A stretch of 64,000 bases of DNA. Source: a virus. Below the pieces are notes generated by a model. That model had not been told where the DNA came from and did no database searches. It saw nothing but the letters and a program-made list of their open reading frames with translations. The DNA lies in the IMG/VR virus record IMGVR_UViG_3300015050_001142, positions 31,586 through 95,585 of that record. The stretch is one strand, 5' to 3'. The first letter of the stretch is position 1; each line of letters opens with the position of its first letter. Positions 1 to 64,000 of this stretch are shown piece after piece. The position numbers and the translations under genes are program-made.

Positions 1-1517
1 AATATTCTTCTTACTGGAAACAGAATAGGCAGAAGAAGTTCTCACTCATGCACCAGAAAGGTTCTTACATCGATGAATTCGGTGTTGAGCGCGGGAAAAT
101 GCCTGAGATCATTGCACAGATCGTTGATAAACCTTCAAAGACTCGTGGTAAGCGTGGAAGAAAAGCTTCATTTGAAGAAGCAGGCTCATTTCCTAATCTG
201 GAAGCAGCTCTTGAAGTATCGATGGGTTCTATGCGTGAAGGTTCTGTATATGTGGGCCAGATCTCAGTATTCGGTACCGGTGGTGAAGTTGGACCAGGTA
301 TTCAAGGTTTGGAGAATATCTTTAATTCGCCTGAATCCTGGGATATGCTTGCGTTTCCTAATATTTGGGATGAAGGTATGTACGGAACTCAATGTGGATA
401 CTTTGTACCATGTTGGAGAGCTAACTCCTGGTTCATGGATGAAGATGGTAATGTTGATATGGAATCAGCTATTGCTGCAGATGATCGGGAACGGGAGAAA
501 AAGAAAAAATCTGGCCGGCCGAAGGATTTGGATAGAAGAAAGGCTGAGTACCCACGAACTCCGGCCGAAGCACTGCAGCGTATTAGTGATAATGGATTCA
601 ATATCGCGGAGATTGACGCACAGATATCCCGGATATTAACCAATAAATCTATCCAGGCTATGATCCGCCACGGTAAGTTGATTACCTCAACAACTGGTAC
701 TGGCGGAATTGACTTTGTACCGCAATCAAAAGCTGTAGCTAAACCTATTGAAGACTTCCCACATAAGAAAGGTGATGATTTAACTGGCTGTTTCTCTATT
801 ATTGAACGACCATTTACTGATCAGAATGGATTGGTACCCAAAGGAATGTATGTGATCAGCGTGGATAGTTATTCAAAAGAAGAATCCGAGGATGTAACAT
901 CGCTGTTCTCATTTAAAGTGTGGAAACAGGAGAATACTATTGATCCGGCATATGCTGGATTACCGGTAGCCTGGTACGCGGGCCGACCAAAACGATTAGA
1001 TGATAACCATGACATATTATTCAATGCATCTCAATACTTTAACGCTGATATACAAGGTGAAATAGCCGGCGGTGGCCAGATGATCGTCAATTATGCCCGT
1101 ACCCATAAACTCATGCACCGGTTAAAGCATGAGCCGGATATGATTCACAATAAAGAATTGGCAAGTAAATCTGCAGGTAATTCTTATTTGATGAATATGT
1201 CAACTGAGCGTAAGGAAGTAGGACTTACCTATCTGGAAGATTGGCATGTACAGCCACGCGGATTAGACGACAAGGGTAATAAGGTACTGAATGTTCATAG
1301 GATCTATGATATTGCCTGGTTGAGAGAAATGAAGAAACATCACTCAAAATTAAACTGCGATCGTATCTCTGATGCGATTATTGCTATGTACGAATTAAAG
1401 GAAAGAATGGCTATTCTGGTACAGGCCAGAGCTGAAACCAGAGGCTTTTACTCAAATAAACGGGTATTATATGGTGGATCAGCTATGAATACTGGTGGCC
1501 GTACTACCGCATATTAA
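1..1517 (+). CDS. terL: Terminase large subunit (5'-truncated; frame open from the window start)
   Basis: RGKRG...FEEAGSF Walker-B region, VFGTGG coupling motif, RNase H-like nuclease acidic residues (ISVDSY, DRISD); immediately upstream of portal as in crAss-like phages; no stop in frame upstream of position 48. Confidence 0.9.
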   Translation, partial: YSSYWKQNRQKKFSLMHQKGSYIDEFGVERGKMPEIIAQIVDKPSKTRGKRGRKASFEEAGSFPNLEAALEVSMGSMREGSVYVGQISVFGTGGEVGPGIQGLENIFNSPESWDMLAFPNIWDEGMYGTQCGYFVPCWRANSWFMDEDGNVDMESAIAADDREREKKKKSGRPKDLDRRKAEYPRTPAEALQRISDNGFNIAEIDAQISRILTNKSIQAMIRHGKLITSTTGTGGIDFVPQSKAVAKPIEDFPHKKGDDLTGCFSIIERPFTDQNGLVPKGMYVISVDSYSKEESEDVTSLFSFKVWKQENTIDPAYAGLPVAWYAGRPKRLDDNHDILFNASQYFNADIQGEIAGGGQMIVNYARTHKLMHRLKHEPDMIHNKELASKSAGNSYLMNMSTERKEVGLTYLEDWHVQPRGLDDKGNKVLNVHRIYDIAWLREMKKHHSKLNCDRISDAIIAMYELKERMAILVQARAETRGFYSNKRVLYGGSAMNTGGRTTAY

Positions 1518-1519
1518 TC

Positions 1520-1527
1520 TATATTTG
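1520..1527 (+). promoter_or_regulatory. Bacteroidota -7 promoter element TAnnTTTG upstream of portal
   Basis: TATATTTG in the intergenic gap, 18 nt before the ATG at 1546. Confidence 0.5.
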
Positions 1528-1545
1528 TACATAAACTGAATTCTT

Positions 1546-3984
1546 ATGTCAAGAGAAACTGTTATAAATAATCGGGTTACATCCACTGGGAAACCCTTAC
1601 AGGTAATCCCTTACACTGAGAAAACACCGGACTGGTATAAGAATAATGTAGATTATTATATCATGCGATCGAACTTTAACTTCGGATCGAAAGATAATAC
1701 TGGCCGCAAAGATTTACGGGTACTTTATGAGGTTTACAACAACCAGTTTCCTCTTGATTGGTTTGCACACGTAACTGATCCTCTATCAGCTAAAGTTGAA
1801 GCACACAAAGCATTTCCAGCTAAAATAAGACCGGTAACTATTCTGCGTACAAATATTGATCTATTGTTGGGAGAATGGCCTCGCCGTCCATATGTATACA
1901 ACGTAGAGAATCTTGGAGAAGGTGGATATAATAATTACATGGCCGCACTTGAAGAACAGTTGAAAACTAATATTACTCAACACTTTGTACAGGCAGCATT
2001 ACAATCAGCCAAAGAATCTGGGCAACAAATAACTCCAGAACAGGAACAGCAATTACAACAGAATCCACCTACCCCTGAAAAGATAAAAGAACAATTCCAA
2101 CAAACATATAAAGATGCTGTAGCAGTTAAAGGGCAGAAGTTTCTACGTAAGATGATCCGTGAGAAAGAGATTAAACAGAAGCAACATCAAATGTTTAAAG
2201 ACTGGAATATTGCTGGTCAAGCTTATTCTTTTAAAGGTGTGATGAATGACGACCTGGTTTATCGCCGGGTTTCTCCATTATGTATTGATTACGATAAATC
2301 AGAGACTGAGAAACTTATTGAGAATGGGGAATGGGTAGTTAATCGTGAACTCTATGTTGTGAGCGATGTGGTTAATATGTTTTGGCAAGTATTAAATAAA
2401 CAGAATCAAATTGATATTGATAACCGTCTTCCATTCGCTACAGCAGCGGGATTTTATTCAGCATTGAATGGTTTATATACTGATGAGAATGCGCGTAATA
2501 AAGTACCTGTTTACCACGTACAATGGAAGGGTAGACGTAAGGTATTATTTTTGTCTTACCTCGATCCTGAAACATTTCAGTACGTTGAAGATGTAAAAGT
2601 TGATGAAGCTTATATTCCTGATAAATCCCGTGGTGAAGTTGTTGAAGAACGTTGGGTAGATGAAGTTTATGAAGGTCATAGAATTGGCGATCAGGCTAAT
2701 GCTATTTATGTAAATCTTCAACCTGCAGCAGTACAGCGTGCACCAATGAATAATATGTCTGCGTGTAAGCTGAATTACAATGGACGTAAGTATTCTGATA
2801 CCCATGCTGAGAATCTGTCGGTACTGGAGATGGGTATTCCTTTTCAGATCATGTACATCATTATCACGTACATCTTAGAGAAAACAATTGCCAAGAGTAA
2901 GGGTAAGATATTAATGATTGATCAGAATGCTATTCCAAATGAAGGCGAATGGGATGATGAGAAATTCTTCTATTATTCTGAAGCACTTGGATATGCATTG
3001 CTTAATCGTAATCAGGTTGGCGTAGATAAGAGCTGGAACCAGTACCAGGTACTTGATATGAGCTTGTTTGATTCAATTCAACAGCTAATAGAATTACAAG
3101 CGCATACTAAACAGGAATGGGATGATTTGATTGGTATCAGCCGTCAGCGTAAAGGACAAACTTATTCCAGTGATGGTCAAGGTGTAAACGAACGTGCAGT
3201 ATTCCAATCAACTGTAATTACTGATATGATCTTTATTGGCTTTGAAGAGTTTGTACAAAGTGAATTGCAAGGTATAATGGATTATGGTAAATTCCTTACA
3301 GCTAAAGGGCATAAATCTATTTACAATGATGATGAATTTGGTACCATGTTGATGGAGATATTTCCAGAAGATTTTATTAATGAAGATCTAGGAGTATTTG
3401 TAGATAGTAGTTCTGAACATATTCATAAATTACAGCAGATGCAGGGATTGGCCCAGGCAATGGTACAGAACAATGCACGTATCTCTACTGTATTGGAAGT
3501 AATGGATGCAATTAATGTGGCTGATCTTAAAGCTAAGATAAGGCGTATTGAAGAGATTGAAGATCAAATAGCAGCTTCACAAGGACAATCAGAACAGGAA
3601 GCTTTAGCAGCAGCCGATGAACGTAAAGAACGTTATGCTAAATATGAAAACATTCTTGATACATTATTCATGAATGATGAATATAATCGTAAAGAAGATA
3701 TTGAGCATATCAAGGGTAGTTATCAATTAGAAGCAGCAGCTAAAGATGATAGTGTAAATGAAGATCCAAATGCTTCAGCTAACTTTGAGAAATTAATGCT
3801 TGAGCGTCAGAAGTTTGATGTCGATCGACAAGATAAATTAGCTGAACGGGATCGTAAAACTAAAGAATTACAATTACAGAAAACAGAACTAGAGCATAAG
3901 ATGGAAACCGATCGACAAAAATTAAAACTTGATGCTCGTAAGATAACAGTAGCAGCAAAAAAGAAAGCATCACCAACCAAGTAA
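1546..3984 (+). CDS. Portal protein (crAss-like)
   Basis: 812 aa, between terminase and capsid genes; crAss-portal-like segments (IDLLLGEW..RP, GISRQRKGQ, ERAVFQS), C-terminal coiled coil. Confidence 0.85.
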   Translation: MSRETVINNRVTSTGKPLQVIPYTEKTPDWYKNNVDYYIMRSNFNFGSKDNTGRKDLRVLYEVYNNQFPLDWFAHVTDPLSAKVEAHKAFPAKIRPVTILRTNIDLLLGEWPRRPYVYNVENLGEGGYNNYMAALEEQLKTNITQHFVQAALQSAKESGQQITPEQEQQLQQNPPTPEKIKEQFQQTYKDAVAVKGQKFLRKMIREKEIKQKQHQMFKDWNIAGQAYSFKGVMNDDLVYRRVSPLCIDYDKSETEKLIENGEWVVNRELYVVSDVVNMFWQVLNKQNQIDIDNRLPFATAAGFYSALNGLYTDENARNKVPVYHVQWKGRRKVLFLSYLDPETFQYVEDVKVDEAYIPDKSRGEVVEERWVDEVYEGHRIGDQANAIYVNLQPAAVQRAPMNNMSACKLNYNGRKYSDTHAENLSVLEMGIPFQIMYIIITYILEKTIAKSKGKILMIDQNAIPNEGEWDDEKFFYYSEALGYALLNRNQVGVDKSWNQYQVLDMSLFDSIQQLIELQAHTKQEWDDLIGISRQRKGQTYSSDGQGVNERAVFQSTVITDMIFIGFEEFVQSELQGIMDYGKFLTAKGHKSIYNDDEFGTMLMEIFPEDFINEDLGVFVDSSSEHIHKLQQMQGLAQAMVQNNARISTVLEVMDAINVADLKAKIRRIEEIEDQIAASQGQSEQEALAAADERKERYAKYENILDTLFMNDEYNRKEDIEHIKGSYQLEAAAKDDSVNEDPNASANFEKLMLERQKFDVDRQDKLAERDRKTKELQLQKTELEHKMETDRQKLKLDARKITVAAKKKASPTK

Positions 3985-4002
3985 ACCACAAACAGTAATT
4001 AT

Positions 4003-5172
4003 ATGCAAAATTTGATTAGACTTTTCCGCGATCCAAATCCAAATGACACGTCATTACCACCATCTCTTGTAGAATTGGAATCAGGTGTTGGTGCAGATGG
4101 TAAACCATTAATTAAACCTTTACCGCTTGACAATCCACTACCACCAAAACCAGGTGAAGCGGGATATGTAGAACCAAAGTTTGGCGAAGAAGGTTACGTT
4201 CTTAAACCCGGTGATGAAGGATACGAATTAAAACCGGGAGATGATGGCTACGAACCTAAACCCGGTGAAGAAGGTTATGTACCAAAAGAAGGAGAAGAAG
4301 GTTATGTAGCTCCTGAAGCCGGTACTGAACCACAATTCTGGGATGAGGTTGAAAAGATCACTGGACGTAAGGTTGAAATAACTTATCCTGATGGCATTGA
4401 AGCTGATACTCCTGAAGGTGCTGCATTCCGTGAAGAGTTTGTACGCGAAGAAGCAGCTATTGAATTTGAGAGTAAATTAGCTGAATCATCCCCTCGTGCT
4501 TATGCATTCTTTCTGCACATGGCCGCAGGTAAACCAGAAAATGAATTCTTTGGTGATACAGGTGCAAGTTTTTCGTTACCAGAACTATCAGCATTAGAAG
4601 CTTCAGTTGATCTTCAAACCAGTATGTACAAGCATGATTTAATCTCTCGTGGATTAGATGATGATGCAGCGCAAACCTTAGTGGATAAGGCTATCAAGGA
4701 TAATAAGCTTAAAGACCTTGCTGTAACTGCTTATAAGATTACTGATGCTGCACAGAAGCAGCAATTAGCGGATTTACAGAAAGAACAAGCAGCAGAAGAA
4801 ACTAAATTCAATACTTCTGTACAAGCGATTTCTACCCGTATTGCAACTGCAATTAAAGAGGAACTGAGCTTTGTTGTACCTACTGCAAGAGAAGAAGAGT
4901 TTAAAACTTTTGTAGCCAATCATTTACAATATGATAAAGGCGAATTTTTCCTGGTACAGAAGGTAGCTTCTGATAAAGATTTCAAGAATCAACTGGAAAG
5001 TTTATTCTTTCAGTTCGTAAAAGGCGATTTAAGTACTGTTGTGAAAAAACAAGTAAAAACAGAAGCTGCACAGCGTCTTAAGTTAGTTGTGAAGAAGGCA
5101 GAAGCAGGTACCGGGGGTGGTCAACGTAGTGGAGATGATGGTACAAAGAATATACCTTTAGGCGATCATTAA
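4003..5172 (+). CDS. Putative capsid scaffolding protein
   Basis: Acidic, low-complexity N-terminus and helical C-terminus; lies between portal and MCP. Confidence 0.6.
   Translation: MQNLIRLFRDPNPNDTSLPPSLVELESGVGADGKPLIKPLPLDNPLPPKPGEAGYVEPKFGEEGYVLKPGDEGYELKPGDDGYEPKPGEEGYVPKEGEEGYVAPEAGTEPQFWDEVEKITGRKVEITYPDGIEADTPEGAAFREEFVREEAAIEFESKLAESSPRAYAFFLHMAAGKPENEFFGDTGASFSLPELSALEASVDLQTSMYKHDLISRGLDDDAAQTLVDKAIKDNKLKDLAVTAYKITDAAQKQQLADLQKEQAAEETKFNTSVQAISTRIATAIKEELSFVVPTAREEEFKTFVANHLQYDKGEFFLVQKVASDKDFKNQLESLFFQFVKGDLSTVVKKQVKTEAAQRLKLVVKKAEAGTGGGQRSGDDGTKNIPLGDH
4144..4323 (+). repeat. Six tandem 9-10 aa repeats (P)KPG(E/D)EGY(V/E)x in the scaffold-like protein
   Basis: PKPGEAGYVE-PKFGEEGYVL-KPGDEGYEL-KPGDDGYEP-KPGEEGYVP-KEGEEGYVA. 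Confidence 0.85.
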
Positions 5173-5198
5173 TACTTCTAACCTAAAATCTAACCAAG

Positions 5199-6728
5199 AT
5201 GTCAAGTAACACTTTAGTTCCCCAGATGAAGTTCCAGGTACAGGAACAGATATTTGATGCTAAGAGTATGTTGGATGAAACCAACTTTTACCATCAGCGT
5301 CAAGGTATGCCGTCCGAGCTTACCAAAAAGTTAACCTATATCCTCGGATCTCAGAAACGTAACTATCCATTGTCACTTATGACTCTTGGTGCAGGTGGTT
5401 TCAACACTGATAACAAAGGTGGTGGATCAGCTATCGAGATCGATGATGTACAGTACACTTATCCGGTAATGACCCGCACCAACAAAGCATCAGTTATTTA
5501 CTCAACAGAGTATGTAACCGGTGATAAGCCTGGTATTGGCCACGGTAAGTTCTACGCAACATTTACTGATAACTGGATCAAACGTTTCTATGTTCTCCAA
5601 TCTACAGGTGGTACCCAAGCTTACGTACATAGCGATGGTGAACCGGTAGCAGGTGGTTACAGATATGAACTCCAGTTAGATCCGGCCGGCCCGACAGATT
5701 TCTGTCCTTTGGCACAGCTTGATCCCGGTACTCGTTGGGTTGAATTACATACAGCAGTAGCAGAATCTGAATCCCGTTCAACTGAGAGCAAAATGGTTAT
5801 GCCAGGTTTGTTCAAGAATCAGATGGGTTTCATGAGAGCTGGTATGAGCTGGGCAGGTAATTCAGCAAATAAAATGATGAGGATCACAGTTAAAACCGAT
5901 AAAGGTGAGACTGATATGTGGATGGATTACTACATGTGGCAGATGGAAGAGCGTTGGGCTGAAGAGTGTGAGCACATGTATTGGTACAGCCGTTATAACA
6001 GACTCGTTGATGGTTCTATTCCATTGAAAGATATGTTCACCGGTAAAGTAATTCCGCGTGGTTCCGGTGTATTTGAACAGATCACAAACAAATCAACCTA
6101 TGCCCGCCTTACTTTGAATGCTTTGACAAATAAAGTAGGTGATGCATTGTTTGGTCAGACTGATACTGGTGGAATGACTATTACCCTTATGACCGGTACT
6201 GGTGGTATGAGAGAGTTTGATCGTGCTTGTCGTGAGGCAGGTATTGCTAAACTTGGACCATTCGGTGCAGGTGATATCGCCAGCAAATTTGTATCTGGTA
6301 CAGGATATAACTTGGCTTTGGGTGGATACTTTGATACTTTCTATCATATTGATGGATATACAATTAAAGTAAAACATAACCCGGTATTCGATACAGGTCG
6401 TGTTGCGCTGGCTTCTCCATTACACCCTGAAAGTGGTTTACCACTGGAATCTTACAGGATGTGTTTCCTTGATGATAGCGATGTTGATGGATCACCAAAT
6501 ATCCGTCACGTAGCACAGAAAGGCCGTTCATTCCTGGATGGTGTTGTAAAAGGTTTAACTCCAATGCCACGTTCATTACAAATCTTGATCGGTTCTACCG
6601 GTGGTGCAGCTTCTAAAGATTTGGCAACTGTGCAGGATAAGAGTGAATACACAAGGTTTAAATCTGCAGGTATTCAGATCATGCGCGCTAACCGCTGCTT
6701 TGATCTCCAGTGTATCGCAGGTCAATAA
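5199..6728 (+). CDS. Major capsid protein (crAss-like)
   Basis: 509 aa; GSGVFEQI, LMTGTGGMREF, LGGYF..FYHIDG, HPESGLPLESYRM motifs; followed by a strong terminator. Confidence 0.9.
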   Translation: MSSNTLVPQMKFQVQEQIFDAKSMLDETNFYHQRQGMPSELTKKLTYILGSQKRNYPLSLMTLGAGGFNTDNKGGGSAIEIDDVQYTYPVMTRTNKASVIYSTEYVTGDKPGIGHGKFYATFTDNWIKRFYVLQSTGGTQAYVHSDGEPVAGGYRYELQLDPAGPTDFCPLAQLDPGTRWVELHTAVAESESRSTESKMVMPGLFKNQMGFMRAGMSWAGNSANKMMRITVKTDKGETDMWMDYYMWQMEERWAEECEHMYWYSRYNRLVDGSIPLKDMFTGKVIPRGSGVFEQITNKSTYARLTLNALTNKVGDALFGQTDTGGMTITLMTGTGGMREFDRACREAGIAKLGPFGAGDIASKFVSGTGYNLALGGYFDTFYHIDGYTIKVKHNPVFDTGRVALASPLHPESGLPLESYRMCFLDDSDVDGSPNIRHVAQKGRSFLDGVVKGLTPMPRSLQILIGSTGGAASKDLATVQDKSEYTRFKSAGIQIMRANRCFDLQCIAGQ

Positions 6729-6761
6729 TATAACTGTTTGGGTTGGTTTATTCCAATCTAT

Positions 6762-6792
6762 GAGTCCCGTCAGAAATGGCGGGATTCTTTTT
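6762..6792 (+). terminator. Rho-independent terminator after MCP
   Basis: GAGTCCCGTCA-GAAA-TGGCGGGATTC stem-loop followed by TTTTT. Confidence 0.85.
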
Positions 6793-6807
6793 GTCCTAAA
6801 CTTCCCC

Positions 6808-6815
6808 TACATTTG
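6808..6815 (+). promoter_or_regulatory. Bacteroidota -7 promoter element TAnnTTTG
   Basis: TACATTTG directly after the MCP terminator, 23 nt before the ATG at 6839. Confidence 0.5.
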
Positions 6816-6838
6816 TAAGACAATAAACCCATAACAGT

Positions 6839-7789
6839 ATGAAGACAACGGAAAAACACCTAAACAGTAAAACAGTCACCATCTTTCGATCAGGATCATT
6901 TCTGGCCCGCGCGCAGGGGCCGGCTATCCAGGATTATTTTGAATCAGCCAAAGTATCCATTGGTTCTTATTTTGAATCACAGAGTTCTACAATGATTGGT
7001 TCAGGATTAACCTTTGAAGAACAAAGGGTATTAATGCCGATATTAGTTGATGCTCCATTTGAGGATAGAGAGTTCAGGAAACTGGTACGTGACTACTTTT
7101 CAAATATTGATACGAAAGTACCACATGGTACCGGCTGTATTCTTGAGATTGGTTTAGCGAAAAATAATGCTGAACCAGTGAGTCTTGAAAATATGCCAAT
7201 CTCTATCGTTGACTTTGTTCGGTACCGTCATGCTTATCATCACCCTTTTATGGCATTAAGTAAAGAAGAAGCGGATAGTAATCCTACCAAACAGTATTAC
7301 ATTTTTGATAAATCTCAATTACAGGAAAAGAATAAGAAAAATACTCAGGAAGCCGATGCTGCAATGGCATTGTACCTGGCTGTGAAGAAAGATGAATCTA
7401 AAGTGAATATGCTTCTTACATTACTTGGCCTTGATCCGCGTTCCTTTACAAGTGAGTCAGATAAAACTGATAAACTGAAAGAAATTGCAGTACAAACACC
7501 GGAGAAATTTACTGAGAAACATAACAGCGATGATTTCGATATCAGGTATTGGATTGAATCAATGAAGAATGTAAAAATTCTTTTGTTGATTGGGCAGAAA
7601 TATATCAATGCTGATACCAAAAAAGTTATTGGTAACACATTGGAAGAAACTATCTACTTCTTCAAAGATGATGCGAATTCAGATGAGGTTGGTATCCTGA
7701 AAGCTAAGATGCAAGAGGCTTTACGTAATCCATTAGAAGCTCAGAAACGTGCAACCGCGCCGAAAGAAGGTACTGGTGCAACAAAATAA
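6839..7789 (+). CDS. Conserved crAss-like protein downstream of MCP ('gene 75'-like)
   Basis: Synteny; GLTFEEQRVLMP..., IGNTLEETIYFFK segments. Confidence 0.65.
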   Translation: MKTTEKHLNSKTVTIFRSGSFLARAQGPAIQDYFESAKVSIGSYFESQSSTMIGSGLTFEEQRVLMPILVDAPFEDREFRKLVRDYFSNIDTKVPHGTGCILEIGLAKNNAEPVSLENMPISIVDFVRYRHAYHHPFMALSKEEADSNPTKQYYIFDKSQLQEKNKKNTQEADAAMALYLAVKKDESKVNMLLTLLGLDPRSFTSESDKTDKLKEIAVQTPEKFTEKHNSDDFDIRYWIESMKNVKILLLIGQKYINADTKKVIGNTLEETIYFFKDDANSDEVGILKAKMQEALRNPLEAQKRATAPKEGTGATK

Positions 7790-7795
7790 TTTTGT

Positions 7796-8851
7796 ATGAC
7801 AGTTAACGAAATGCATATTGAATTAAGACAATCCGCTAATCAGATTGGTGCAAACAAAAGTCGTAAGTACGAACCTGAAGAATTGGATTGGATACTTAAC
7901 AAGATGTATAATCGTTTTATACAATCAAAACTTAAACCAAAGAAAGACGGATCTGGTGGCTTTGAACTGGACCAGATCAGTGCAGACCAGATCCGTACTT
8001 TAATTGTTCCTTCATATGACTTGGTACCCTATGTAGATGATAGTAGAAGGTACCAATGTTTTCTCCCGGCTGATTACGCTTACCTGTTGTCTGATTGGTC
8101 AGCTACAACATTACTTTGTACTGGAGATACCATTACTGAAACAGCTGAGAATCTCTATATAACAGCGATCAGACAAGATTACTCTACCGGTGCTTCTCCA
8201 AGCGGATTCTATCGAACATTGAAAGTATTGTTTCCTGATGCAACTGTAGAAATTCCAACTGATTTACCTTATGGTAATAATTATCAAGGATACACAAAGA
8301 AGACAGATATTTCATTTCTGATTCCTTGGATTCGTGCTAAGGGCCAATATTACTGGGAAAGATTCGCTGATTTGTTTTATCCTGGCTATTACATCCATAC
8401 CTCTTTAACTCCGGTCGCATCACCAATTCCTACGATTGGTATTACCATTGATGGAATTACTTACCATACATACCAATACGTGATCAAGAATCTGGTGAAA
8501 CATACCGGTACCGGTCAGATAAGAGATAATCGGTTAACAGCTTCTAATAAAATCTCAGGCTTAAACAGCACCCCATTCTGGAAATCTTCTCATTATAGTC
8601 CTGTTTCCGAGCTTGGAAATGGAATTTTATATATTTACAGAGATAATAGCTTCACAGTAAATGGTGTGAGCATTTCTTACATTAGGAAACCTGTCCCAAT
8701 CAGTTTAAGTTTGAATACAAATTGTGAATTACCTGAAGAGTTTCATCAAACGATCTGTGATTTAGCAACTCAGTACATGGCCGGAAGGTTAAAAGATGGA
8801 GATGCTTACCAACTTGATAAAGATGATAACGACACCAGAGTAGTTCTATAA
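7796..8851 (+). CDS. Tail ring / head-tail connector protein
   Basis: MTVNEMH...EELDWILN N-terminus and SYIRKP...CELPEEFHQTICDLA C-terminus typical of crAss ring proteins. Confidence 0.7.
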   Translation: MTVNEMHIELRQSANQIGANKSRKYEPEELDWILNKMYNRFIQSKLKPKKDGSGGFELDQISADQIRTLIVPSYDLVPYVDDSRRYQCFLPADYAYLLSDWSATTLLCTGDTITETAENLYITAIRQDYSTGASPSGFYRTLKVLFPDATVEIPTDLPYGNNYQGYTKKTDISFLIPWIRAKGQYYWERFADLFYPGYYIHTSLTPVASPIPTIGITIDGITYHTYQYVIKNLVKHTGTGQIRDNRLTASNKISGLNSTPFWKSSHYSPVSELGNGILYIYRDNSFTVNGVSISYIRKPVPISLSLNTNCELPEEFHQTICDLATQYMAGRLKDGDAYQLDKDDNDTRVVL

Positions 8852-8870
8852 CCCACTAAAAATTATTATC

Positions 8871-9791
8871 ATGGAAATGAATCGGTTCTTCTCCGCAACC
8901 CTCGGCGTACAAGCTGAATGTATTATCGCCCAATTTATTGACAATTCATCCCCCGGCCAGTCGCCTACACACAGAGCATTCGTTGATAACGCCTTAGCAG
9001 GTTCTATCGCTGTTTACTTTGATGATACCAATCTGTTGGTACCTGCAGGTGGAACCAGTTTGGCCGCTAATGCAAATCGTAAATTCTTTTATGCCTGGAA
9101 ACAAGCTGATGGCCGTGCGTTCCGAACAACCGGTTTCCCATGTCTTCCAACATATAAGCAGGCAGCTTACAATGCTGGTGTTGCACAAACAACTACTCTT
9201 ACAGTAACTGGTACAGTAAGTACAACCCAGATATTGCATGTTCGTATTACTGATACAACTCCTACACAGGTACCGTATCCTACATACGAATATCAATCAA
9301 CTGTATCTGTTGACGTTGCTACTTCATTAACTTCTATTGCTGCTCAAATTACTGCTGAAACCAATGAACCAATTGCTACAGCTACTTCTGCAGGATCAGT
9401 TCTTACTATCGTAGGACTTTACAAAACCCGTACATTTACTGTAACAGCTTACTTGGAAGTTAGTGCAACACAAGCAACTGATCTCAGTATATTTACCGCA
9501 GTGAACACTGTTAAAGCAGTAGCTCCGGTAGGTACCATTGAAGATGTGCTGGCTTTTGATAAGTATGTGATCGAGCAAAATGGTGGTGTACTATACACAG
9601 AAGCTGGTACTTTACCTGCTGAATTCCAGGCATGGGCCACAAATGCACTCAGCACAATTAACTATGGTTATCTGATTGTAAGTGCCAATAAACATGTTGT
9701 TGATGAAGGCGCTACCAGAGCATATGACAAGAAATCATACATCATCGTAGCACTACCAACTGCACAAGTGGCAACACTGGCAGCTAACTAA
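8871..9791 (+). CDS. Putative auxiliary capsid (decoration) protein
   Basis: Thr/Ala/Val-rich beta protein at the syntenic position of the crAss auxiliary capsid gene; followed by a terminator. Confidence 0.55.
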   Translation: MEMNRFFSATLGVQAECIIAQFIDNSSPGQSPTHRAFVDNALAGSIAVYFDDTNLLVPAGGTSLAANANRKFFYAWKQADGRAFRTTGFPCLPTYKQAAYNAGVAQTTTLTVTGTVSTTQILHVRITDTTPTQVPYPTYEYQSTVSVDVATSLTSIAAQITAETNEPIATATSAGSVLTIVGLYKTRTFTVTAYLEVSATQATDLSIFTAVNTVKAVAPVGTIEDVLAFDKYVIEQNGGVLYTEAGTLPAEFQAWATNALSTINYGYLIVSANKHVVDEGATRAYDKKSYIIVALPTAQVATLAAN

Positions 9792-9815
9792 CCGGCCATT
9801 CTACCCCATATATCA

Positions 9816-9846
9816 AAATCCCTCGGCTAACTACCGGGGGATTTGT
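9816..9846 (+). terminator. Stem-loop terminator
   Basis: AAATCCCTCGG-CTAACTA-CCGGGGGATTT followed by T-rich sequence. Confidence 0.7.
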
Positions 9847-9873
9847 ATTATCTTTATTCCCAAATCTATCACT

Positions 9874-10539
9874 ATGCCGGCAGAAACTCTCAATACGATA
9901 ACCACGGTCATAGCATCGCACTTCGATCGTGAACAGGATGAACCATTCAAGCGATCACTTGGGCCGGCAGTAGATGCCTGGAGATCTAAGCTTGTAACCA
10001 ACTCATTGGAGAAGCACCCTGAGCAACGTAAATTTTTCAAGCAAACATTATGGGTACCAATGGAATCGGCAGCATCAGTTCCATGTCCAATGCCAATGAC
10101 TCTATGTCCGGTAGCTAAATCTAAATTTGCTATCCCCAAACCATTAAGATTACAAGGAATTCTTTATGATTACGTTGGTAGCTACGATGGCCGGAACCCA
10201 TTTAAGGAAGCAGCTCCCGGTACCCTTGAATTTCTACAATCAGGAAAGTATTCAGGTAATATAACTTTCTGGGAAAATGAAAATCAATATATAAAGATTG
10301 GTGATAATGCAAAACTTCCCAAGATACGTGTTGATGGTGTATTTGATAAACCATTGGATGTAATGCTGATTAATTGCCAAAACAGTGGCGATTGTGATTA
10401 CTGGGAAATGGAATATCCTGCAACCGGAGATATTATTCAAATGATCATTCAATATATTTTACAGGTAGATTTCAATCGACCGAAATTACCTGATGCACCT
10501 GAGATTGAAGTAACTCCAACAGAACCAAAAAATCCATAA
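9874..10539 (+). CDS. Tail ring protein
   Basis: Synteny; IRVDGVFDKP...CDYWEMEYP C-terminal pattern of crAss ring proteins. Confidence 0.6.
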   Translation: MPAETLNTITTVIASHFDREQDEPFKRSLGPAVDAWRSKLVTNSLEKHPEQRKFFKQTLWVPMESAASVPCPMPMTLCPVAKSKFAIPKPLRLQGILYDYVGSYDGRNPFKEAAPGTLEFLQSGKYSGNITFWENENQYIKIGDNAKLPKIRVDGVFDKPLDVMLINCQNSGDCDYWEMEYPATGDIIQMIIQYILQVDFNRPKLPDAPEIEVTPTEPKNP

Positions 10540-10541
10540 GC

Positions 10542-11204
10542 ATGAAAGTAGAAGGCATTAAAGTACACACAATAAAACACATGTGGGAAGCTTATTCTAA
10601 AAAAATTGTAGAAGCCAATCCTGATTGTATTACTGTGTACCAAAATAACATTCATAATTTTTACATTTTCAAACCTAAGACCAGATCTAAAATAATTACA
10701 ACTGTTTTCCCTTCGCGTACAAGTTATCGTAGAGAATATAGTATGGATGGATTAATCTTCAGCTATGAGATGTTTCGTAAAATAATAGATGATTATTTCA
10801 TGAAAGCTCGTAAAGAAATCGTTGAAGGTAATGCCCTTCGTTTAAATACAATGGGAGTAATCTGCGGTAAGCGTGTAGAGAGAGATTATCGTAAATCAAA
10901 ACAACGAATGATCAATTGGCAGAAGACTAAGCTTCAACCTTTAGTTTATGATGAAGCACTTGGCCGAGATCGATATGAGAAAAAGATTTATTTTACTGGT
11001 GATGATTGGTGTCGTATAGCCTGGTGTAAGACTGTGCCGGTTACAAATATGACTGTATATGAGTTTACTCCGACATCTTCAACATCTGGTCAAAGAAATG
11101 GATTTAAATCTCAATTCACTGATGCACTTGCTTCTAACCCATTATTGAAATATCAATATTTATTTGAACCAATATATTATCCACCGATTAAGCCAACAGT
11201 ATGA
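10542..11204 (+). CDS. IHF/HU-like basic DNA-binding protein of the crAss structural module
   Basis: Basic; KEIVEGNALRLNTMG, INWQKTK, WCRIAW segments; position just before ring and muzzle genes. Confidence 0.6.
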   Translation: MKVEGIKVHTIKHMWEAYSKKIVEANPDCITVYQNNIHNFYIFKPKTRSKIITTVFPSRTSYRREYSMDGLIFSYEMFRKIIDDYFMKARKEIVEGNALRLNTMGVICGKRVERDYRKSKQRMINWQKTKLQPLVYDEALGRDRYEKKIYFTGDDWCRIAWCKTVPVTNMTVYEFTPTSSTSGQRNGFKSQFTDALASNPLLKYQYLFEPIYYPPIKPTV

Positions 11205-12040
11205 TCTATACATCAACAGGTATAAAAGAAGTCATTGGCCGTGTTATACGTAATACCCGTATTCAGGACAGTTCTTATATTTCTGATATGGTTGAATGGA
11301 TACCGGAAGCAATGGGACTCATGCAAACCAAGATGGAATTAAAACCTGCTTATGAAGATATACGTGTGAATTTTCATATGGGCAAGCTTCCATGTAATCT
11401 TCGCTGGATCACTGCAGTTGAATGGAATGGTTGTCGTATACCTGAAAACAATTCAGCACGATCTGCAGCAAGTATTTCCCGCAGGCGTATTGATGCAGCA
11501 TTAGGTACTGCTGAAGGTTTTATAACAGTACCCACTAAATGGGATACACCTACAGGTAATCAAATGTATGATACTGCACTGGTACAATTCAGTTCATTAT
11601 GTGCTGATTCATGTGGAAGACTTCCTTGGAATCAGGCAGTATGGTACCAGGTAGAAATGGATTACTTACAGTTCTCAATTGCTGATACTGTAGTAAGGGT
11701 ACATTACAAAGGAATTCCATTAGATGAAAATGGATTCCCGTTAATTCCTGATGAAGAAAATTATAAGCAAGCTCTTTATTTCTATACACGGAAGATGATG
11801 ATCGGTGCAGGATATGAAGATAAAGTTTATACCATGTTACAGCTTGATGCTGAATTTGAAAAGTATGCTGGTCGTGCAATGGGAAAGATTCGGTACCCTT
11901 CTGTAGATTCAATGGATATGAAAGTTGATCGAATGACAAGATTAATTGTTGATCCTAATTACTTCAATTCATTTTTCTCCGGTACTGGTCCAGAGAAATT
12001 TTATGGTTTACCAAGCAAAATAAACTATCCTAACTTATGA
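11201..12040 (+). CDS. Tail tubular / ring protein (P22 gp4-like)
   Basis: EWIPEAM, GKLPCNL, YKGIPLDENGFPLIPD motifs; directly before the muzzle gene. Confidence 0.75.
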   Translation: MIYTSTGIKEVIGRVIRNTRIQDSSYISDMVEWIPEAMGLMQTKMELKPAYEDIRVNFHMGKLPCNLRWITAVEWNGCRIPENNSARSAASISRRRIDAALGTAEGFITVPTKWDTPTGNQMYDTALVQFSSLCADSCGRLPWNQAVWYQVEMDYLQFSIADTVVRVHYKGIPLDENGFPLIPDEENYKQALYFYTRKMMIGAGYEDKVYTMLQLDAEFEKYAGRAMGKIRYPSVDSMDMKVDRMTRLIVDPNYFNSFFSGTGPEKFYGLPSKINYPNL

Positions 12041-15000
12041 AGCCAATAAAAGGAATACAAATGGATAATCGTCCCTCAGAGCAACCTGAAGGGACTTATC
12101 CGTTTGGTAAGAATGGTATTCAATTTGATTTGAATGGATCTGTATTCAATGAACCAGGGTTTAGAGCAATGACTGCAGTAGTACCTTATGCACTTAATGG
12201 TATAATCGAAACTGATGATAAGCCAATATTATTCTCAACAAATAATACTAATTCAGCAATTGGTTTCTTTAATCCAAAGACTGAATTATATGAACCCATT
12301 ATCGATGATGCAAACTGGGCTTTAACAGGACAGTATCTTGGGTTTAAGATTGAAAATTATATTACCGGTGAATCTCAGCGTAATTATAAAGGAGAGATGG
12401 TAGTAACCTTTACTGATAAGGTAACGTATCCAAAATATCTTAATTGTGATAATCCAAGCCTAGCATCAATTGATGATTTGAGATTATTCGCATATTTTCT
12501 TCCACCAACATTAACTGTAGTACAAGCTCAAGGCGGTAAACTTTTACCCGGTACTTACTATGTTGCAGTTGGCTATGAAAGAAATGATGGTACTTCATCT
12601 CCTTATTCTGCAGTGAGTAATGGCACTTTTGTTACTCCGGGCGCTACTATTGGAGTAACAAATAAATCACTAAGCATTACAATCGATAATGCAGATACAA
12701 GTTATGATTCAATCCGTGTTGCAATTATATCTCGTATTGATGGTAAAACAACTGCAGTTGAATTAAATGATTTCTTACCCATTACAGGCGCTACAATTCA
12801 ATTGACATATACAGGTGTAAATCCAAGTACTGATATTGCTATTGAATCAATATTAACTCCACCAGCTTTGTACAGTAAGGTTGGAACAATGGGACAATTA
12901 AATGATGCTTTGTATTTGGCTGAACTTGAGAAAGAACCGGATTTAGATGATATGCAGCCTTATGCTGCTTCTGTTATTTTAGAATGGACTTCAGAATTAA
13001 TGAATGCACTTAATCCGCCAGAAGAACATGTTACCGGGATCAAGAAATCTAATATGCACGAGGAAGTTTATGCTAGATATATTAGGTACCGTAAAGCTCG
13101 TGGTGGATTCACTAAATGGTACGTTATTCCTGGACCGGTACCTGAAGCTGCAGATATAGCCGCATCATCAGAAGCTGCTGTAAGTGGATATACTGGCGGA
13201 AGTGTACCGAAATTTAAAGTAGAAGATACGATTCATTATTTCGATCCTGTTGCTAAAACGGGATCTTGTGGTGTTTGGGTAAATACAACTGAAAGATATC
13301 CAGACACAGTTGATTTCGATGCTACATCTATCGGCGGACCAAACCTGCGTAATCAATTGGTTCGTCACCATAAGATGCCATCTCTCAGATGGTGTAAAGC
13401 AAATCTTTATCAAACAGAAGATGATTATGGTAAAACTAAACTCGATCTGCTTGGTGTGCGTGCATTAAATGTTCGTATTCCAGATAAATATATTGGAATT
13501 ATTAATGGTTATGAACTTGGATATGCATTACGTACAACAGGTAATATGACTGTACTTGGCCAAGGAGCATTAATGCATGGAGCTACTGATACACGTAATT
13601 ATCAGCATGCATTAAATACAATACCAATCTATACAACTGGTGGAAATTTTACCAGTGCCATATTTCATCCAACAGTAAACTTTTTTAGTTCGGATCGTGG
13701 TCCGTGGAATGATGATGATGCATTACAGGATCTTAGACTGGATACAATGAGATTTCATGCGTTTGATTTATTATTCAATAAACCTGCGATATCTCCAACA
13801 TTTATATCTGCACAGTTTAAGCTTCACAGAGATATTGGCTATCCTCAATACTTAGAAGATGGTACTCTTGACGATACAGTTCCTGGTGATGCACCATTAG
13901 GATTTTTAATTGATTATACAATTGGATTGAAACCTGTACAAATTGCAACTGGAAAGAAACTTCGAGCTATTGGTTCAAGTTTCTATCTTGATAATACAGT
14001 TAATGTAAATCAGTTTGTAAATCTTAGACACGAGAATACATATGGTGGTACTTTATTAGGAACTCCCTGGAGTATTGTGTATGGTAATTCATCATTAAGA
14101 ATGCGCCGTGGTAATGCTACTGATTATACACTCGGAATGCCACCTTATGAAGAAACTTACCTCATCAATCTTCTTTCATTGAAGAATGACATCTATAATA
14201 ATTTCTATTCTCAAATGCTTGTATCATCCGGTACCGCAAAAAGTCTTTCTGATATAACTCCATTCTGGGGCGGCGATACATTTAATTGTGATTATACTTT
14301 TCATACTTATGGAAGACATGATGCTGTAGATTCAGAAGGTGATGGATTTAGAGGAAAGAAAATAGTTCGTAGAATTATTTGTGAAAGCGTATCGAACATT
14401 GCAGTAAGATATGAGATACCAGGAAATATTTATTCTAAGTGGTACCCACATAACTCTATTACAACAGGAGTACCTGAGCAATGTTATCCTACATTTCAAT
14501 TAAGAACTGAAGATCCTAATCAATTTGGATACTCTAAAGATTTCAATGCATTGAATGATTTAATTGATGCAACAATATATTCTCCATTCAGAGAATATAT
14601 TTATTCGTTTCCATTTCGTATTCATCGTGGTGGTAAGAATAATCGTCAAACAAGGCCACGTTCATGGAGAACATTTTTACCACTTGATTACTATGAATGC
14701 CAAAAGAATATGGGCCGGATAATTAATCTGGAAGGTTTAGATGATCACTTATTAATTCATCACGAAAATGCATTATTCCAAACTTTGGATAAATTAAAAC
14801 TTGATGGGGATGTATTATCTGTAACACTTGGTTCCGGTGATATATTTCAGTTTGAACCACAAACACCAATTGATGCTAAACTCGGCTATGCAGGTACACA
14901 GCATGATTTAGCATGTATTAAAACTCCAATGGGGTACTTTTTTGTTGATGCTAAACAAGGAGAAGTATATCTCTATAAATCTAATACTCCTCAAAATCTT

Positions 15001-17022: not shown

Positions 17023-17027
17023 TTACA

Positions 17028-19842: not shown

Positions 19843-19845
19843 GCC

Positions 19846-47099: not shown

Positions 47100-47245
47100 T
47101 TATGACGGTTTAATTTGTCCTTTACTTCTGCGATCTCGGCTTCGCATGTAGCCATATTGTCCAGGAGATCAGTATACCACCAAGGTAACTCATCCATTGT
47201 TTCAAGTTGAAGTACTAATCGACTGAAACTTACATCAATTAACAT
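47096..47245 (-). CDS. 49-aa protein wedged between rIIA and rIIB
   Basis: ATG at 47245 lies just inside the end of rIIA; its TGA overlaps the rIIB ATG; MLIDVSFSRL...KLNRHK (shorter version of the 129-aa track ORF). Confidence 0.55.
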   Translation of the reverse strand: MLIDVSFSRLVLQLETMDELPWWYTDLLDNMATCEAEIAEVKDKLNRHK

Positions 47246-50536: not shown

Positions 50537-50740
50537 TTAAGATATTATGCGAATACGTTCCTTATTGTGTTCAATACCTACATGATTTCCTTCATCTTTA
50601 TACAATTCCCATTCATTATTTTCTTCTGACCATTTAGCAATTCCTTGCATTTTAATAGTCTCAAATTCAAGAAGTAATTTATCATCTTCATGAATTAATT
50701 GTCCGAATTTATCATTGATGTTCGTTGATTTTTTATTCAT
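50537..50740 (-). CDS. YopX-like small protein
   Basis: STNINDKFGQLIHEDDKL resembles the YopX TGLKDKNGKEIYEGDI motif. Confidence 0.55.
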   Translation of the reverse strand: MNKKSTNINDKFGQLIHEDDKLLLEFETIKMQGIAKWSEENNEWELYKDEGNHVGIEHNKERIRIIS

Positions 50741-51713
50741 AGAATTTTAATTGTTTAAGCATTCGTAGAGTTTCTTCCGGACCATGATGAGAACAATAAT
50801 CTGATACATCTTTATCATCAGGTCTTAAATCCATTGGGATATAAACCTTTGGATAAGGGAGATTAGCACCAGCATGTTTACCATCATTATCAAAGAGTAC
50901 CGCAATATGCTTGTACTTAGATTCGAGATGTTTCAAACATAAATCAGGTAATGGTGTATTTTCACTACGCGGTGATATTGCTTCATATCCAAATGATCGT
51001 AAGCACATCACATCCTTTCGGGATTTAGTAATAATACAAAGATCAGAATTGTATTGCAATTGTTTGAATCCATGAACACATACTTCAGTTAAGTTATGGC
51101 GGAATTTATATCGCTTCTCTGCATGAGGAAAGTACAACTGGTACTTGTCCCATTCACGATAAGCATATCCCAATCCTTTTGGATAATCAGGAGTCTTCTG
51201 TTCCTTAGTTATCCAATAAGCTGCTATAGCTTTCACCGTGTATTGTTCAAGTATTTGTTGTGTGATATTGAATTGCTGCCAATAGTTTAAATCTGATCGA
51301 TTGAATGGCCGAGCTTTAATTTCTATGTCAATTGGTTCCAGGTATTTACGATCAGGTACTTTTGATGGAGCTTTAACTATACTGGTACCGCCTAATCCAA
51401 AATCAGCCATTACAACTTTCATTGCTTCTCTACGGGTCTTAACTGAATCAAACAGAAGCATTACCAGATCGAATATATCTCCATGTACATTAGCGGCTAA
51501 ATCCTTCCATAAGAATTCATGATAACCTGCACCATACTTACGTTCATAGATTCCAAATGATGGATCTCTGTCTTCGTTAAATTGTATCTCACCACGTACC
51601 GGAGATGGGTACTTGGCACCGATTAAAGGTTCAAAGCCGAGATAGAAACAATAGAGCGCGTATTCATCTACGCGCTCTAAAATGTCTTCTTCCCGGAATA
51701 ACAGATATTCCAT
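50733..51713 (-). CDS. dnaG: DNA primase (crAss-type, TOPRIM)
   Basis: SPVR...DRDPSF, WKDLA..GDIFD, IITKSRKDVM, SEN, LFDND, KDVSDY. Confidence 0.85.
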   Translation of the reverse strand: MEYLLFREEDILERVDEYALYCFYLGFEPLIGAKYPSPVRGEIQFNEDRDPSFGIYERKYGAGYHEFLWKDLAANVHGDIFDLVMLLFDSVKTRREAMKVVMADFGLGGTSIVKAPSKVPDRKYLEPIDIEIKARPFNRSDLNYWQQFNITQQILEQYTVKAIAAYWITKEQKTPDYPKGLGYAYREWDKYQLYFPHAEKRYKFRHNLTEVCVHGFKQLQYNSDLCIITKSRKDVMCLRSFGYEAISPRSENTPLPDLCLKHLESKYKHIAVLFDNDGKHAGANLPYPKVYIPMDLRPDDKDVSDYCSHHGPEETLRMLKQLKFYE

Positions 51714-57360: not shown

Positions 57361-57365
57361 AGTAA

Positions 57366-62379: not shown

Positions 62380-62381
62380 AA

Positions 62382-62681: not shown

Positions 62682-62695
62682 AATTCTAATTTTTG

Positions 62696-62768: not shown

Positions 62769-62818
62769 AACCATCTGTTTAACGCTTAACAGCCATAAGC
62801 TGTGCCAGATACGGCAAC

Positions 62819-63361
62819 TTAAATAAAATTCTTCCACATAGCACTTGGTACCGGACGAGCCGGCTGATCAGAATACTTACTATCCTTTTTAAAGTTGTAA
62901 GGATTCTGGCATTTACCTTGCGTTAAGTGAAAATAAATTTGTGCGATTGGCATGTTCGGATAAATTATTACCGGAACAATACAACTAATCTCTAACGTCC
63001 ATGTTCCTTTGAAGCCTACATCACCAAATCCAGCAGTTGCATGAATACTAATACCTAATCTGCCAATAGAAGATTTACCTTCTATACAGGGTACTGTAGT
63101 CTTCGCATGGGTAATTTCATTGGTATATCCTAAGTAGAGATCGCCAGGAATAAGTAAGAATCCATCTTCTGGAATTTCATTAGTTATATATCCTGTTGGT
63201 TCTTTTCTACAATCCAATGTAATACTGCTTGGATAATGATAAAGTGTTGGACCAAGTGTAAGATCATAGCTATTAGATCCCAGTCTGTTTCTGTCGAAGG
63301 GTTTAATTTCAATATCCCCTACCTTCATTGCATTGAGGATACTTTGGTCTACTAATACCAT
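62819..63361 (-). CDS. dcd: dCTP deaminase
   Basis: SYDLTL, EGKSSIGRLG, AGFGDVGFKGTWTLEI, IAQIYF, KY..Q. Confidence 0.92.
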   Translation of the reverse strand: MVLVDQSILNAMKVGDIEIKPFDRNRLGSNSYDLTLGPTLYHYPSSITLDCRKEPTGYITNEIPEDGFLLIPGDLYLGYTNEITHAKTTVPCIEGKSSIGRLGISIHATAGFGDVGFKGTWTLEISCIVPVIIYPNMPIAQIYFHLTQGKCQNPYNFKKDSKYSDQPARPVPSAMWKNFI

Positions 63362-63385
63362 ATATTTCTTGAATTTAATTTCGTG

Positions 63386-63661
63386 CTAAAGTGTTGTTAC
63401 AATCATCCTGCCATTCTTCTTTGCATTAGTAATAATCTTGTTCTTGATCATAAAATCAAGGGTAGCAATATTACATAATTGAACTGATGAATCCAAAGAA
63501 AATGCACCATTTTCATTGTTAAGTTCAGTACGTTCAAAGATGAGAAATCCATCTTTCACTTCTTTGATCTCTTGAGGTAAGATCTGCATTGGCTGCATAC
63601 CAATTACCATCATTGTACAGAGATCCCAATCCTTTGCTGTTAGTCTTTCAAACTGTGTCAT
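63386..63661 (-). CDS. Hypothetical protein
   Basis: 91-aa ORF; 4-nt overlap with the upstream gene. Confidence 0.55.
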   Translation of the reverse strand: MTQFERLTAKDWDLCTMMVIGMQPMQILPQEIKEVKDGFLIFERTELNNENGAFSLDSSVQLCNIATLDFMIKNKIITNAKKNGRMIVTTL

Positions 63662-63912
63662 TCTTCTTTCTTTTGTTCGTTAAATGCAATAGATACAAGA
63701 CCAGCTGGTGGTACATATATCAGTGTCTCATGTATAGGTAATGGTATTCTACCTACTATCAATTGGTACCATACTCCACCTGATTCTTCATCGAGCTTCA
63801 AGTGGCTGCATTCGGTATTAAGAATACTAAGTGTGCTGTTATTGGTACCAGCAAATACTCTGATCGCATAGATACCGCGAGTATTTGCTTCAAGCATTCT
63901 TTTCGTTATCAT
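63658..63912 (-). CDS. Hypothetical protein
   Basis: 84-aa ORF tiling the operon. Confidence 0.55.
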   Translation of the reverse strand: MITKRMLEANTRGIYAIRVFAGTNNSTLSILNTECSHLKLDEESGGVWYQLIVGRIPLPIHETLIYVPPAGLVSIAFNEQKKEE

Positions 63913-64000
63913 AGTGAAGTTATTTTACGGGAGTTGTTGTTTGATCTACTGTAATACATACCAAACGAAATTTATACTTCTTATGTTTCTTACGCATATC

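Follow-up and report, generated by a model that had tools for sequence, protein, structure and literature searches.

GGTACC is a hyper-abundant, frame-independent DNA word in one lineage of crAss-like phage

Introduction

The nearest described phenomenon to the one reported here is the highly iterated palindrome (HIP) of cyanobacteria, HIP1 (GCGATCGC), together with the alternate HIPs (PMC4390886; PMC5861425). HIPs are tied to cognate methyltransferases, and sequences that deviate from them by one nucleotide are biased to the outer positions (Elhai 2015; PMC4390886). Here we analyse the palindrome GGTACC in a 64,000-base stretch of viral DNA (the window), which comprises bases 31,586-95,585 of a CheckV-complete IMG/VR record of 95,585 bp (IMGVR_UViG_3300015050_001142, hereafter G000), assigned to the crAss-like phages on the presence of a Crass_capsid major capsid protein gene. 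Like HIP1, GGTACC is a GC-rich palindrome that recurs across coding DNA in every frame and far above composition; it is lineage-specific, its one-off variants are biased outward and, as with HIP1, selection and biased repair are both still argued as the cause. Unlike HIP1, which occupies bacterial chromosomes as an 8-mer at 15-300x, it is found in a 95.6-kb virus genome as a 6-mer at ~10x (3.3x over a coding null); no cognate methyltransferase was found in G000, where the host may supply the enzyme; the elementary unit is probably a pentamer; and the word of a sister lineage is non-palindromic.

A second precedent is provided by Chi-rich lambdoid phages that lack the Rec module (Zheng et al. 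2025; PMC12315714). There too a short word is enriched in some lineages and missing from relatives; Chi is host-specific and is retained because a DNA-processing enzyme reads it. Chi, however, is asymmetric, orientation-dependent, clustered near phage LLS genome ends and abundant in the host chromosome, whereas GGTAC(C) is strand-symmetric, evenly spread and not enriched in sampled bacteria. In addition G000, unlike the Rec-less Chi-rich phages, carries genes of the recombination type, which encode an AAA_24 ATPase, a 5'-3' exonuclease and a resolvase-like nuclease.

A third is restriction-site avoidance (Rusinov et al. 2018; PMC6286503), with which GGTACC shares the lineage-specific behavior, within one clade, of 6-bp palindromes (typical Type II sites). 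The sign is opposite: the word is enriched 3.3x in G000, although it is depleted in two relatives, G004 and G541. Phage words removed by restriction avoidance are known from many examples; words actively accumulated are known from few. In E. coli, very-short-patch repair produces a methylase-associated, genome-wide shift in words, with CCWGG raised and CTAG lowered. G000 likewise has CCWGG, CCAG/CTGG and CAGG/CCTG up and CTAG/TAGG down, but the depleted neighbors of GGTACC are not T variants and the effect is much larger. Our literature search found no report joining GGTACC with over-representation in phages, or crAss-like phages with restriction-site avoidance.

Results

Abundance and placement of GGTACC

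A reading of the window made from sequence only had put the number of sites at about 75, with 7-8 expected at ~36% GC. Exact counting gives 77 (1.2 per kb) at 37.4% GC, against a mononucleotide expectation of 7.67: the observed/expected ratio (O/E) is 10.0 and GGTACC ranks first among the 4096 hexamers. The whole genome holds 105 sites, or 1.10 per kb. Of the example positions given in that reading, 273, 833, 7221, 13085, 61324 (exactly 61323) and 63844 are correct, while three lay 10-30 nt from the true site (8488 for 8507, 29885 for 29915 and 47404 for 47414); the Arg-Tyr-Arg readings at 7221 and 13085 are also correct (CGG TAC CGT and AGG TAC CGT). GTAC, CCGG and GGCC, which had looked common, are indeed so, at 2.0x, 2.15x and 1.33x over mononucleotide expectation.

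Sites occur in all three frames, as had been claimed: across the coding sequences (CDS) of the genome, frames 0, 1 and 2 hold 48, 27 and 28. Genes in the window run on the plus strand from 1 to 43844 and on the minus strand from 43897 to 64000, with GGTACC in both; in minus-strand genes at genome 75-96 kb the count is 25, where 5.6 are expected. Density differs little between the early, structural and replication modules. Regular spacing, clustering and polarity toward the genome ends were each rejected, the gaps being Poisson with a coefficient of variation of 0.99 genome-wide (105 sites). A longer repeat or extended motif around the word was likewise rejected – flanks are diverse, and AGGGTACC/GGTACCCT seems extreme only through the rarity of AGG and GGG. 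Top-strand preference of GGTAC(C) is marginal (1.88 v 1.48, p about 0.04).

Coding constraints explain part of the excess

Null models that respect coding were run on 107 open reading frames (ORFs), obtained by greedy ORF calling, which cover 93% of the genome and contain 103 GGTACC. Permutation of codons predicts 17.1, synonymous permutation within genes 30.2 +- 5.0 (z 14.5), and a strict third-position shuffle, in which codon and following base are kept, 48.7 +- 5.1 (z 10.7). A dicodon-preserving Euler shuffle – which holds frame 0 constant by construction – gives a total of 79.7, with a maximum of 94 in 200 shuffles: the excess under this null lies in frame 1 (27 v 11.9 expected, P 9e-7) and frame 2 (28 v 19.8, P 0.02). 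Codon usage, codon order, codon plus next base, and dicodons each fall short of the observed count, and the suggestion that codon or codon-pair bias alone is insufficient therefore stands: O/E stays above 1 after both the codon-preserving (103 v 30.2) and the dicodon-preserving (103 v 79.7) shuffles. Measured against synonymous shuffles, GGTACC heads the hexamers (3.3x, z 13), and the top pentamers are its two overlapping halves, GGTAC (283 v 138) and GTACC (225 v 105).

Markov models of order 0 to 4 predict 7.7, 5.6, 25.8, 39.5 and 76.8 sites in the window. The signal thus sits mainly at the level of 3-mers (GGT, GTA, TAC, ACC) and 5-mers (GGTAC is present 216 times and GTACC 155 times in the window), and because the order-4 model gives 76.8 against 77, the numbers of GGTAC, GTACC and GTAC suffice to account for that of the hexamer.

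These data bear on the explanation that the word has no target of its own but is a by-product of codon usage, codon pairs, amino acids, or G+C displaced by the purging of other words. Part of the excess does have such an origin. Codon usage and protein sequence lift the genome expectation from 11.2 to about 30 (2.7-fold), G000 using GGT for 50% of Gly, and GTA for 50% but GTC for 3% of Val; the order-2 Markov model by itself reaches the 25.8 given above; the dipeptides Gly-Thr (174 v 124) and Val-Pro (119 v 69.5) exceed composition expectation; and most GC-rich palindromes that escape purging are up (GCCGGC 4.2x, ACCGGT 2.3x, CGATCG 2.2x, CTGCAG 2.1x). However, the observed count lies above every coding null, and shuffles in which 109 strongly depleted words were held purged yield just 28-41 GGTACC (about 33), so that the excess is not a by-product of restriction-site avoidance. 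Thr-Gly (171) is moreover as common as Gly-Thr, and the dipeptide excess is therefore not DNA-driven. Finally, four codon families in three frames bend solely where GGTAC or GTACC results. Coding or avoidance as the sole source is essentially excluded, and we give this explanation very little credence.

Two layers make up the excess. Bacteroidota-like codon usage (GGT, GTA, TAC, ACC) and protein sequence raise the expectation; above this there is a further 3.3-3.5 fold pull on duplex DNA toward GGTAC/GTACC, which acts via Gly, Thr, Tyr and Val codons. GGTACC is, in short, a genuinely hyper-abundant, HIP-like, frame-independent DNA-level word of one phage lineage.

Codon choice bends toward the word

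The second layer is most readily seen in codon choice. Among the places where GGTACC is synonymously possible, 103 of 315 are filled (32.7% v 8.4% expected, ~26). The same count for GGATCC is 0/245, for TTCGAA 0/385 and for CCATGG 0/82: with GGTACC and GGATCC the genome shows both extremes at identical composition, which makes it a clean, quantifiable case of a sequence-specific process favoring one word.

Each of the codon families concerned shifts in the context that creates the word. Before AC, Gly is encoded by GGT in 79% of cases (baseline 50%), and GGT-ACC makes up 48 of the 174 Gly-Thr dipeptides, where codon usage predicts 14.2. After GT, Thr uses ACC at 31% v 14% (p 2.5e-9), with CCC, GCC and TCC unshifted. 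After GG, Tyr uses TAC at 70% v 29% (p 3e-12); Asn AAC and Asp GAC show no such shift, and His moves weakly in the opposite direction, away from CAC (p 0.04). Before CC, Val is GTA in 81% of cases vs 47% elsewhere. There is also synergy at the level of the hexamer: in frame 1 the ratio TAC:TAT after GG is 27:4 with a following C (baseline TAC 31%) and 24:18 without. The near-cognate GGTATC stands at 16 v 17.5 expected where T>C alters the protein, and at 4 v 9.3 where T>C is synonymous. Avoidance of the alternatives (GGAAC, GGTATC etc.) as the cause is ruled out by these within-family codon tests.

The pressure is on double-stranded DNA and its unit is probably a pentamer

Enrichment on the sense strand is symmetrical (GGTAC 2.05x, GTACC 2.15x; GGTACT 2.01x, AGTACC 2.11x). 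Since both orientations are equally enriched, the pressure is on double-stranded DNA and not on mRNA or translation. The pentamer GGTAC/GTACC (508 v 243, 2.09x over the synonymous null) is probably the elementary unit, and the excess of the hexamer is largely self-overlap of that pentamer. Over the same null there is a gradient from GTAC (1.44x) through the pentamer to GGTACC (3.3x). Variants at the outer position are up, by 1.17-2.05x (AGTACC/GGTACT 2.05x, TGTACC 1.43x), and variants at inner positions are down, at 0.53-0.85x; AGTACT stands at 0.75x and CGTACG is absent from G000. The deficits that offset the pentamer excess are those of central variants – GGAAC (0.58), GGGAC (0.45), GGTCC (0.53) and also GGCAC – while T variants are not depleted (GGTAT 0.91, GTATC 1.01). 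As to the HIP-like signal proposed in the sequence-only reading, the frame-independent excess at the DNA level is borne out; the neighbor spectrum, with its central deficits, is not that of T:G-to-C:G patch repair.

Purged words

The enrichment of GGTACC has its counterpart in words that are missing. Twenty 6-bp palindromes have zero copies in all CDS of G000 (95.6 kb) and four more have 1-2. Zero-copy examples, with their synonymous expectations, are TTCGAA (30), GGATCC (12), CCATGG (12), CACGTG (11-12), ACTAGT (11) and TCTAGA (11); under the same null TCCGGA occurs 1 v 14 and CTAG 17 v 117 times. The purged sets differ in relatives: GATC-type words in the sister phage G540, and ATCGAT, CATATG and AACGTT in G004. 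The purge of ~20 palindromes shows that this DNA is subject to restriction at other words, so that GGTACC evidently escapes cutting in the host range. The same heavy avoidance argues against wholesale base modification of G000 DNA.

Other words are avoided as well. The pair GGAGG/CCTCC is nearly missing: merged over strands it occurs 2 times v 71 in synonymous shuffles, and neither member is present in the window. Two bacteria of phage-like signature, G200 and G040 (see below), avoid it far less; the symmetry of the pair suggests avoidance at the DNA level (e.g. of an asymmetric restriction site) and not Shine-Dalgarno-like avoidance. Runs of A/T are strongly avoided (AAAAA/TTTTT 247 v 623; AAAAAAA 6 v 58), and the trinucleotides GAC/GTC reach 0.33-0.39 of the expected frequency (3% of Val is GTC and 9% of Asp is GAC), GTC being rare in G200 too (1.2% of Val).

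The excess is specific to the G000 lineage

The G000 capsid protein is only ~33% identical to those of named Crassvirales and 52-76% identical to those of 39 uncultivated IMG/VR relatives; 76% is the maximum among matches from IMG/VR and the JGI metagenome scan, and capsid proteins 81-89% identical to that of G000 exist, the one at 81% being encoded on a 92.6-kb contig. Comparison with these related phages, called for in the sequence-only reading, shows that the excess is not common to them. Mononucleotide O/E of GGTACC ranges from 0 to 4.8 among relatives, and the closest show no excess against their own synonymous nulls (L001 4 v 6.0, L002 11 v 10.5, L003 8 v 5.8). In one small sub-clade the count is 28 v 10.6, exclusively in frame 0; several further relatives are depleted. 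Whole genomes give 6 v 14.2 (G004), 0 v 5.2 (G541), 24 v 24.2 (G540) and 19 v 18.3 (G005) under the synonymous null, and the word is missing from the 50 kb examined of each of crAss002 and p-crAssphage. At 22 mappable G000 sites, relatives carry the word in just 12 of 401 comparisons, often holding synonymous near-cognates instead (e.g. GGTACT, GGTATC); the sites therefore arose in the G000 lineage via point substitutions. With relatives at 52-76% capsid identity neutral or depleted, the excess is specific to the lineage of G000.

A further relative was seen, as short contigs only, in runs X1 and X2 of one study: at ~90% nucleotide identity (~94% in the capsid gene region; ~1700 differences; window positions 1-20000) it is closer to G000 than any IMG/VR match.

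Other words in other genomes

GGTACC is not the sole word of its kind. The complete sister phage G540 (87 kb, 47.5% GC, direct terminal repeats, capsid 63% identical) has an equally strong excess of a non-palindromic word, CAGCC/GGCTG (489 v 244) and its extension CAGCCT/AGGCTG (181 v 68), in three frames and on both strands (loci L207-L211). The excess is shared by L022, a close relative of G540, and is lacking in other lineages; L023 is listed alongside these two for CAGCC(T). Since the unit in G000 is probably GGTAC on either strand, and the word of G540 is non-palindromic, the palindromy of GGTACC may be incidental and is probably not essential. CCWGG is ~2x over the synonymous null in L001, L002/G005 and L011, and purged (0-1 copies) in L025, L033 and L037. 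In G004, GGGCCC occurs 11 times v 1.2.

Lineage-specific "house words" seem to recur. One may speculate that each phage of the clade has a house word of its own at ~1-2 copies per kb – GGTAC(C) in G000, CAGCC(T) in G540 – read by a fast-evolving DNA-transaction protein of phage or host for self-marking, nuclease protection, priming or recombination: a phage counterpart of HIP or Chi in which the word would switch with lineage or host. We consider this generalization doubtful.

Sampled candidate hosts lack the excess

From the crAss-like family, together with the codon and oligonucleotide signature, we infer a Bacteroidota host for G000; the dCTP-deaminase-like gene was of no use for this purpose, its matches being spread across many phyla. 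A host with the same excess, to which the phage has ameliorated, would make GGTACC an inherited signature. The Bacteroidota survey combined 401 genomes drawn evenly over the phylum with 151 of one family (overlapping sets, ~540 in total). GGTACC is typically found at about 0.15 per kb and at most at 0.48 per kb (v 1.10 in the phage), is usually rarer than the control word of the same composition, CCATGG, and the genomes in which it is densest are GC-rich with O/E of just 1.1-2.1. Equal enrichment, which the sequence-only reading had named as the sign of an inherited bias, is shown by no sampled genome. One surveyed genome, G203 (3.5 Mb), contains CCATGG just once.

General likeness between phage and bacteria is nevertheless considerable. 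Much of the phage's word usage is Bacteroidota-like (CTAG 0.05-0.15, CCGG ~2x, CTGCAG 3.5-5x, ACCGGT 2-3x), GTC/GAC are depleted, and G200 and G040 share with the phage a GTA-rich, GTC-poor Val, CTAG at ~0.05-0.1, and enriched CCGG, CTGCAG and ACCGGT; GGATCC and TTCGAA are rare in G200 as they are in G000, and in G040 GGTAC is weakly raised (1.25-1.29x, z about 6). GGTACC itself, at 1.8-2.2x by composition in G200 and G040, is fully accounted for by codon usage (0.98 and 1.21 of the synonymous null), and the GG-TAY-C context pull is found in neither. Phage relatives with this general signature also lack the excess. Host-like codon usage thus accounts for some 2.7x of the 9-10x in the phage; the other 3.3x is present in no sampled bacterium. 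Because no more than a few percent of the species in the phylum were sampled, inheritance keeps some probability; on balance we judge it unlikely.

A selected word or biased repair as possible causes

What, then, pulls codon choice toward GGTAC? Our tentative preference, held at less than even confidence, is for selection that retains the sites of a sequence-specific DNA-transaction protein. GGTACC would be recognized in duplex DNA by a protein of the phage-host pair, and selection would maintain site density because binding, marking or processing at the word serves the phage, a case akin to HIP or Chi. The graded enrichment (GTAC 1.4x, GGTAC 2.1x, GGTACC 3.3x), with outer variants up and inner variants down, fits a dimeric reader of two half-sites; this half-site gradient, the gains drawn from neighbors of all kinds and the word of G540 fit selection for a word that is read. 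The primase, as a phage-encoded enzyme that reads DNA sequence, is a conceivable candidate.

Several observations weigh against selection of this kind. No candidate reader emerged from Pfam scans of ~46 ORFs or from PHROGs comparison of 10 replication-module ORFs, two largely overlapping sets (most small early proteins of G000 match no family). The sites are Poisson-spaced and not positionally conserved, as judged against relatives that are distant (52-76% capsid identity), a pattern just as much to be expected of a neutral drive. The agreement of the order-4 Markov model with the observed 77 means that a dimeric reader specific for the hexamer is not required. A two-fold pentamer excess is present in G200, an ordinary bacterium, in which CCTGC/GCAGG occurs 1029 v 514 times (2.0x, z 23, synonymous null; loci L161 and L182-L191); such words may be a common, unexplained component of genome signatures. 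The host survey, lastly, takes in the small fraction of species noted above. Taken by itself, the word of G200 is a bacterial excess as large as that of GGTAC in G000.

Nearly as likely as a selected reader, and in our estimation a possibility on the doubtful side, is site-directed biased repair, as in Elhai's model of HIPs. A GTAC or GGTACC methyltransferase of the host, coupled to methylation-dependent mismatch repair, would convert near-cognates into the word during phage replication or recombination, and the word would be useless to the phage. CCWGG, which within the clade is raised in certain lineages but purged in others, behaves as expected with a methylase-repair pair or a restriction enzyme. 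The methylase-repair interpretation of that pattern rests on Dcm/Vsr of E. coli. Depletion of GGTACC in G004 and G541 indicates that GGTACC-specific enzymes probably exist in the clade's host range. Scattered Poisson sites lacking positional conservation, with all modules equally affected, are what such repair predicts, and the asymmetry between outer (1.2-2.05x) and inner (0.53-0.85x) variants resembles that described for HIPs (Elhai 2015; PMC4390886).

Other data do not fit repair. The search for a phage methyltransferase that the sequence-only reading proposed was negative: none of five DNA methyltransferase families (PF01555, PF00145, PF02086, PF02384, PF05869) has a match in G000, the Pfam and PHROGs scans of the ORFs named above revealed neither a methyltransferase nor a Vsr-like protein, and ORFs of the glycan cassette match glycosyltransferases and acetyltransferases but contain no methyltransferase domain. 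On the five families and these scans, a phage-encoded methyltransferase was rejected as the source. The balancing deficits are those of central, transversion-type variants, and not of the T variants on which T:G repair acts; and a host-borne process should enrich the host, yet none of the ~540 Bacteroidota is enriched. In E. coli, moreover, patch repair gives just ~1.3-fold enrichment of CCWGG, which also counts against repair as the cause of an effect of this size.

The consequences differ between the two. A reader, if there is one, would add a new phage-host interaction to what little is understood of the Crassvirales; if repair is responsible, such repair would shape the genome of a lytic phage. 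On either account the excess could serve as a marker of lineage or host, and codon-based host prediction for such phages should allow for an excess of words.

Other features of the genome

Among its remaining genes G000 encodes a family A DNA polymerase, a primase, helicases, an RIIA-like protein and a 3,899-aa virion RNA-polymerase-type ORF. Features with coordinates are collected in Table 1.

Table 1. Representative GGTACC sites and annotated genes, in window coordinates unless a locus is named.
Feature	Position	Strand	Remarks
GGTACC excess domain	1..64000	.	77 sites, every one inside ORFs, Poisson-spaced
Frame-0 site	273..278	+	GGT ACC, Gly-Thr; codon reading
Frame-2 site	833..838	+	xxG GTA CCx, Val-Pro; codon reading
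Major capsid protein (Crass_capsid)	5199..6728	+	PF23898, E 4e-57; marker used to find relatives
Frame-1 site	7221..7226	+	CGG TAC CGT, Arg-Tyr-Arg; codon reading
Frame-1 site	13085..13090	+	AGG TAC CGT; codon reading
952-aa GHKL-ATPase protein	47235-50093	-	RIIA lysis-inhibitor families, phrog_612, E 1e-15
DNA primase	50733..51713	-	phrog_12622, E 8e-31
dCTP-deaminase-like protein	62819-63361	-	PF22769, E 8e-33
Frame-0 site in replication/early module gene	63844..63849	-	codon reading
dNMP-kinase-like protein	L040:982-1791	-	PF21448

The dCTP-deaminase-like and dNMP-kinase-like proteins are nucleotide-pool enzymes with no evident tie to the word bias. A MutL-like repair role for the 952-aa GHKL-ATPase was rejected: the protein is RIIA-like and is kept (~41-43% identity) in G004 and G540, which are not enriched in GGTACC. 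The copy of this gene in G004 reads through two stops (TAG, TAA).

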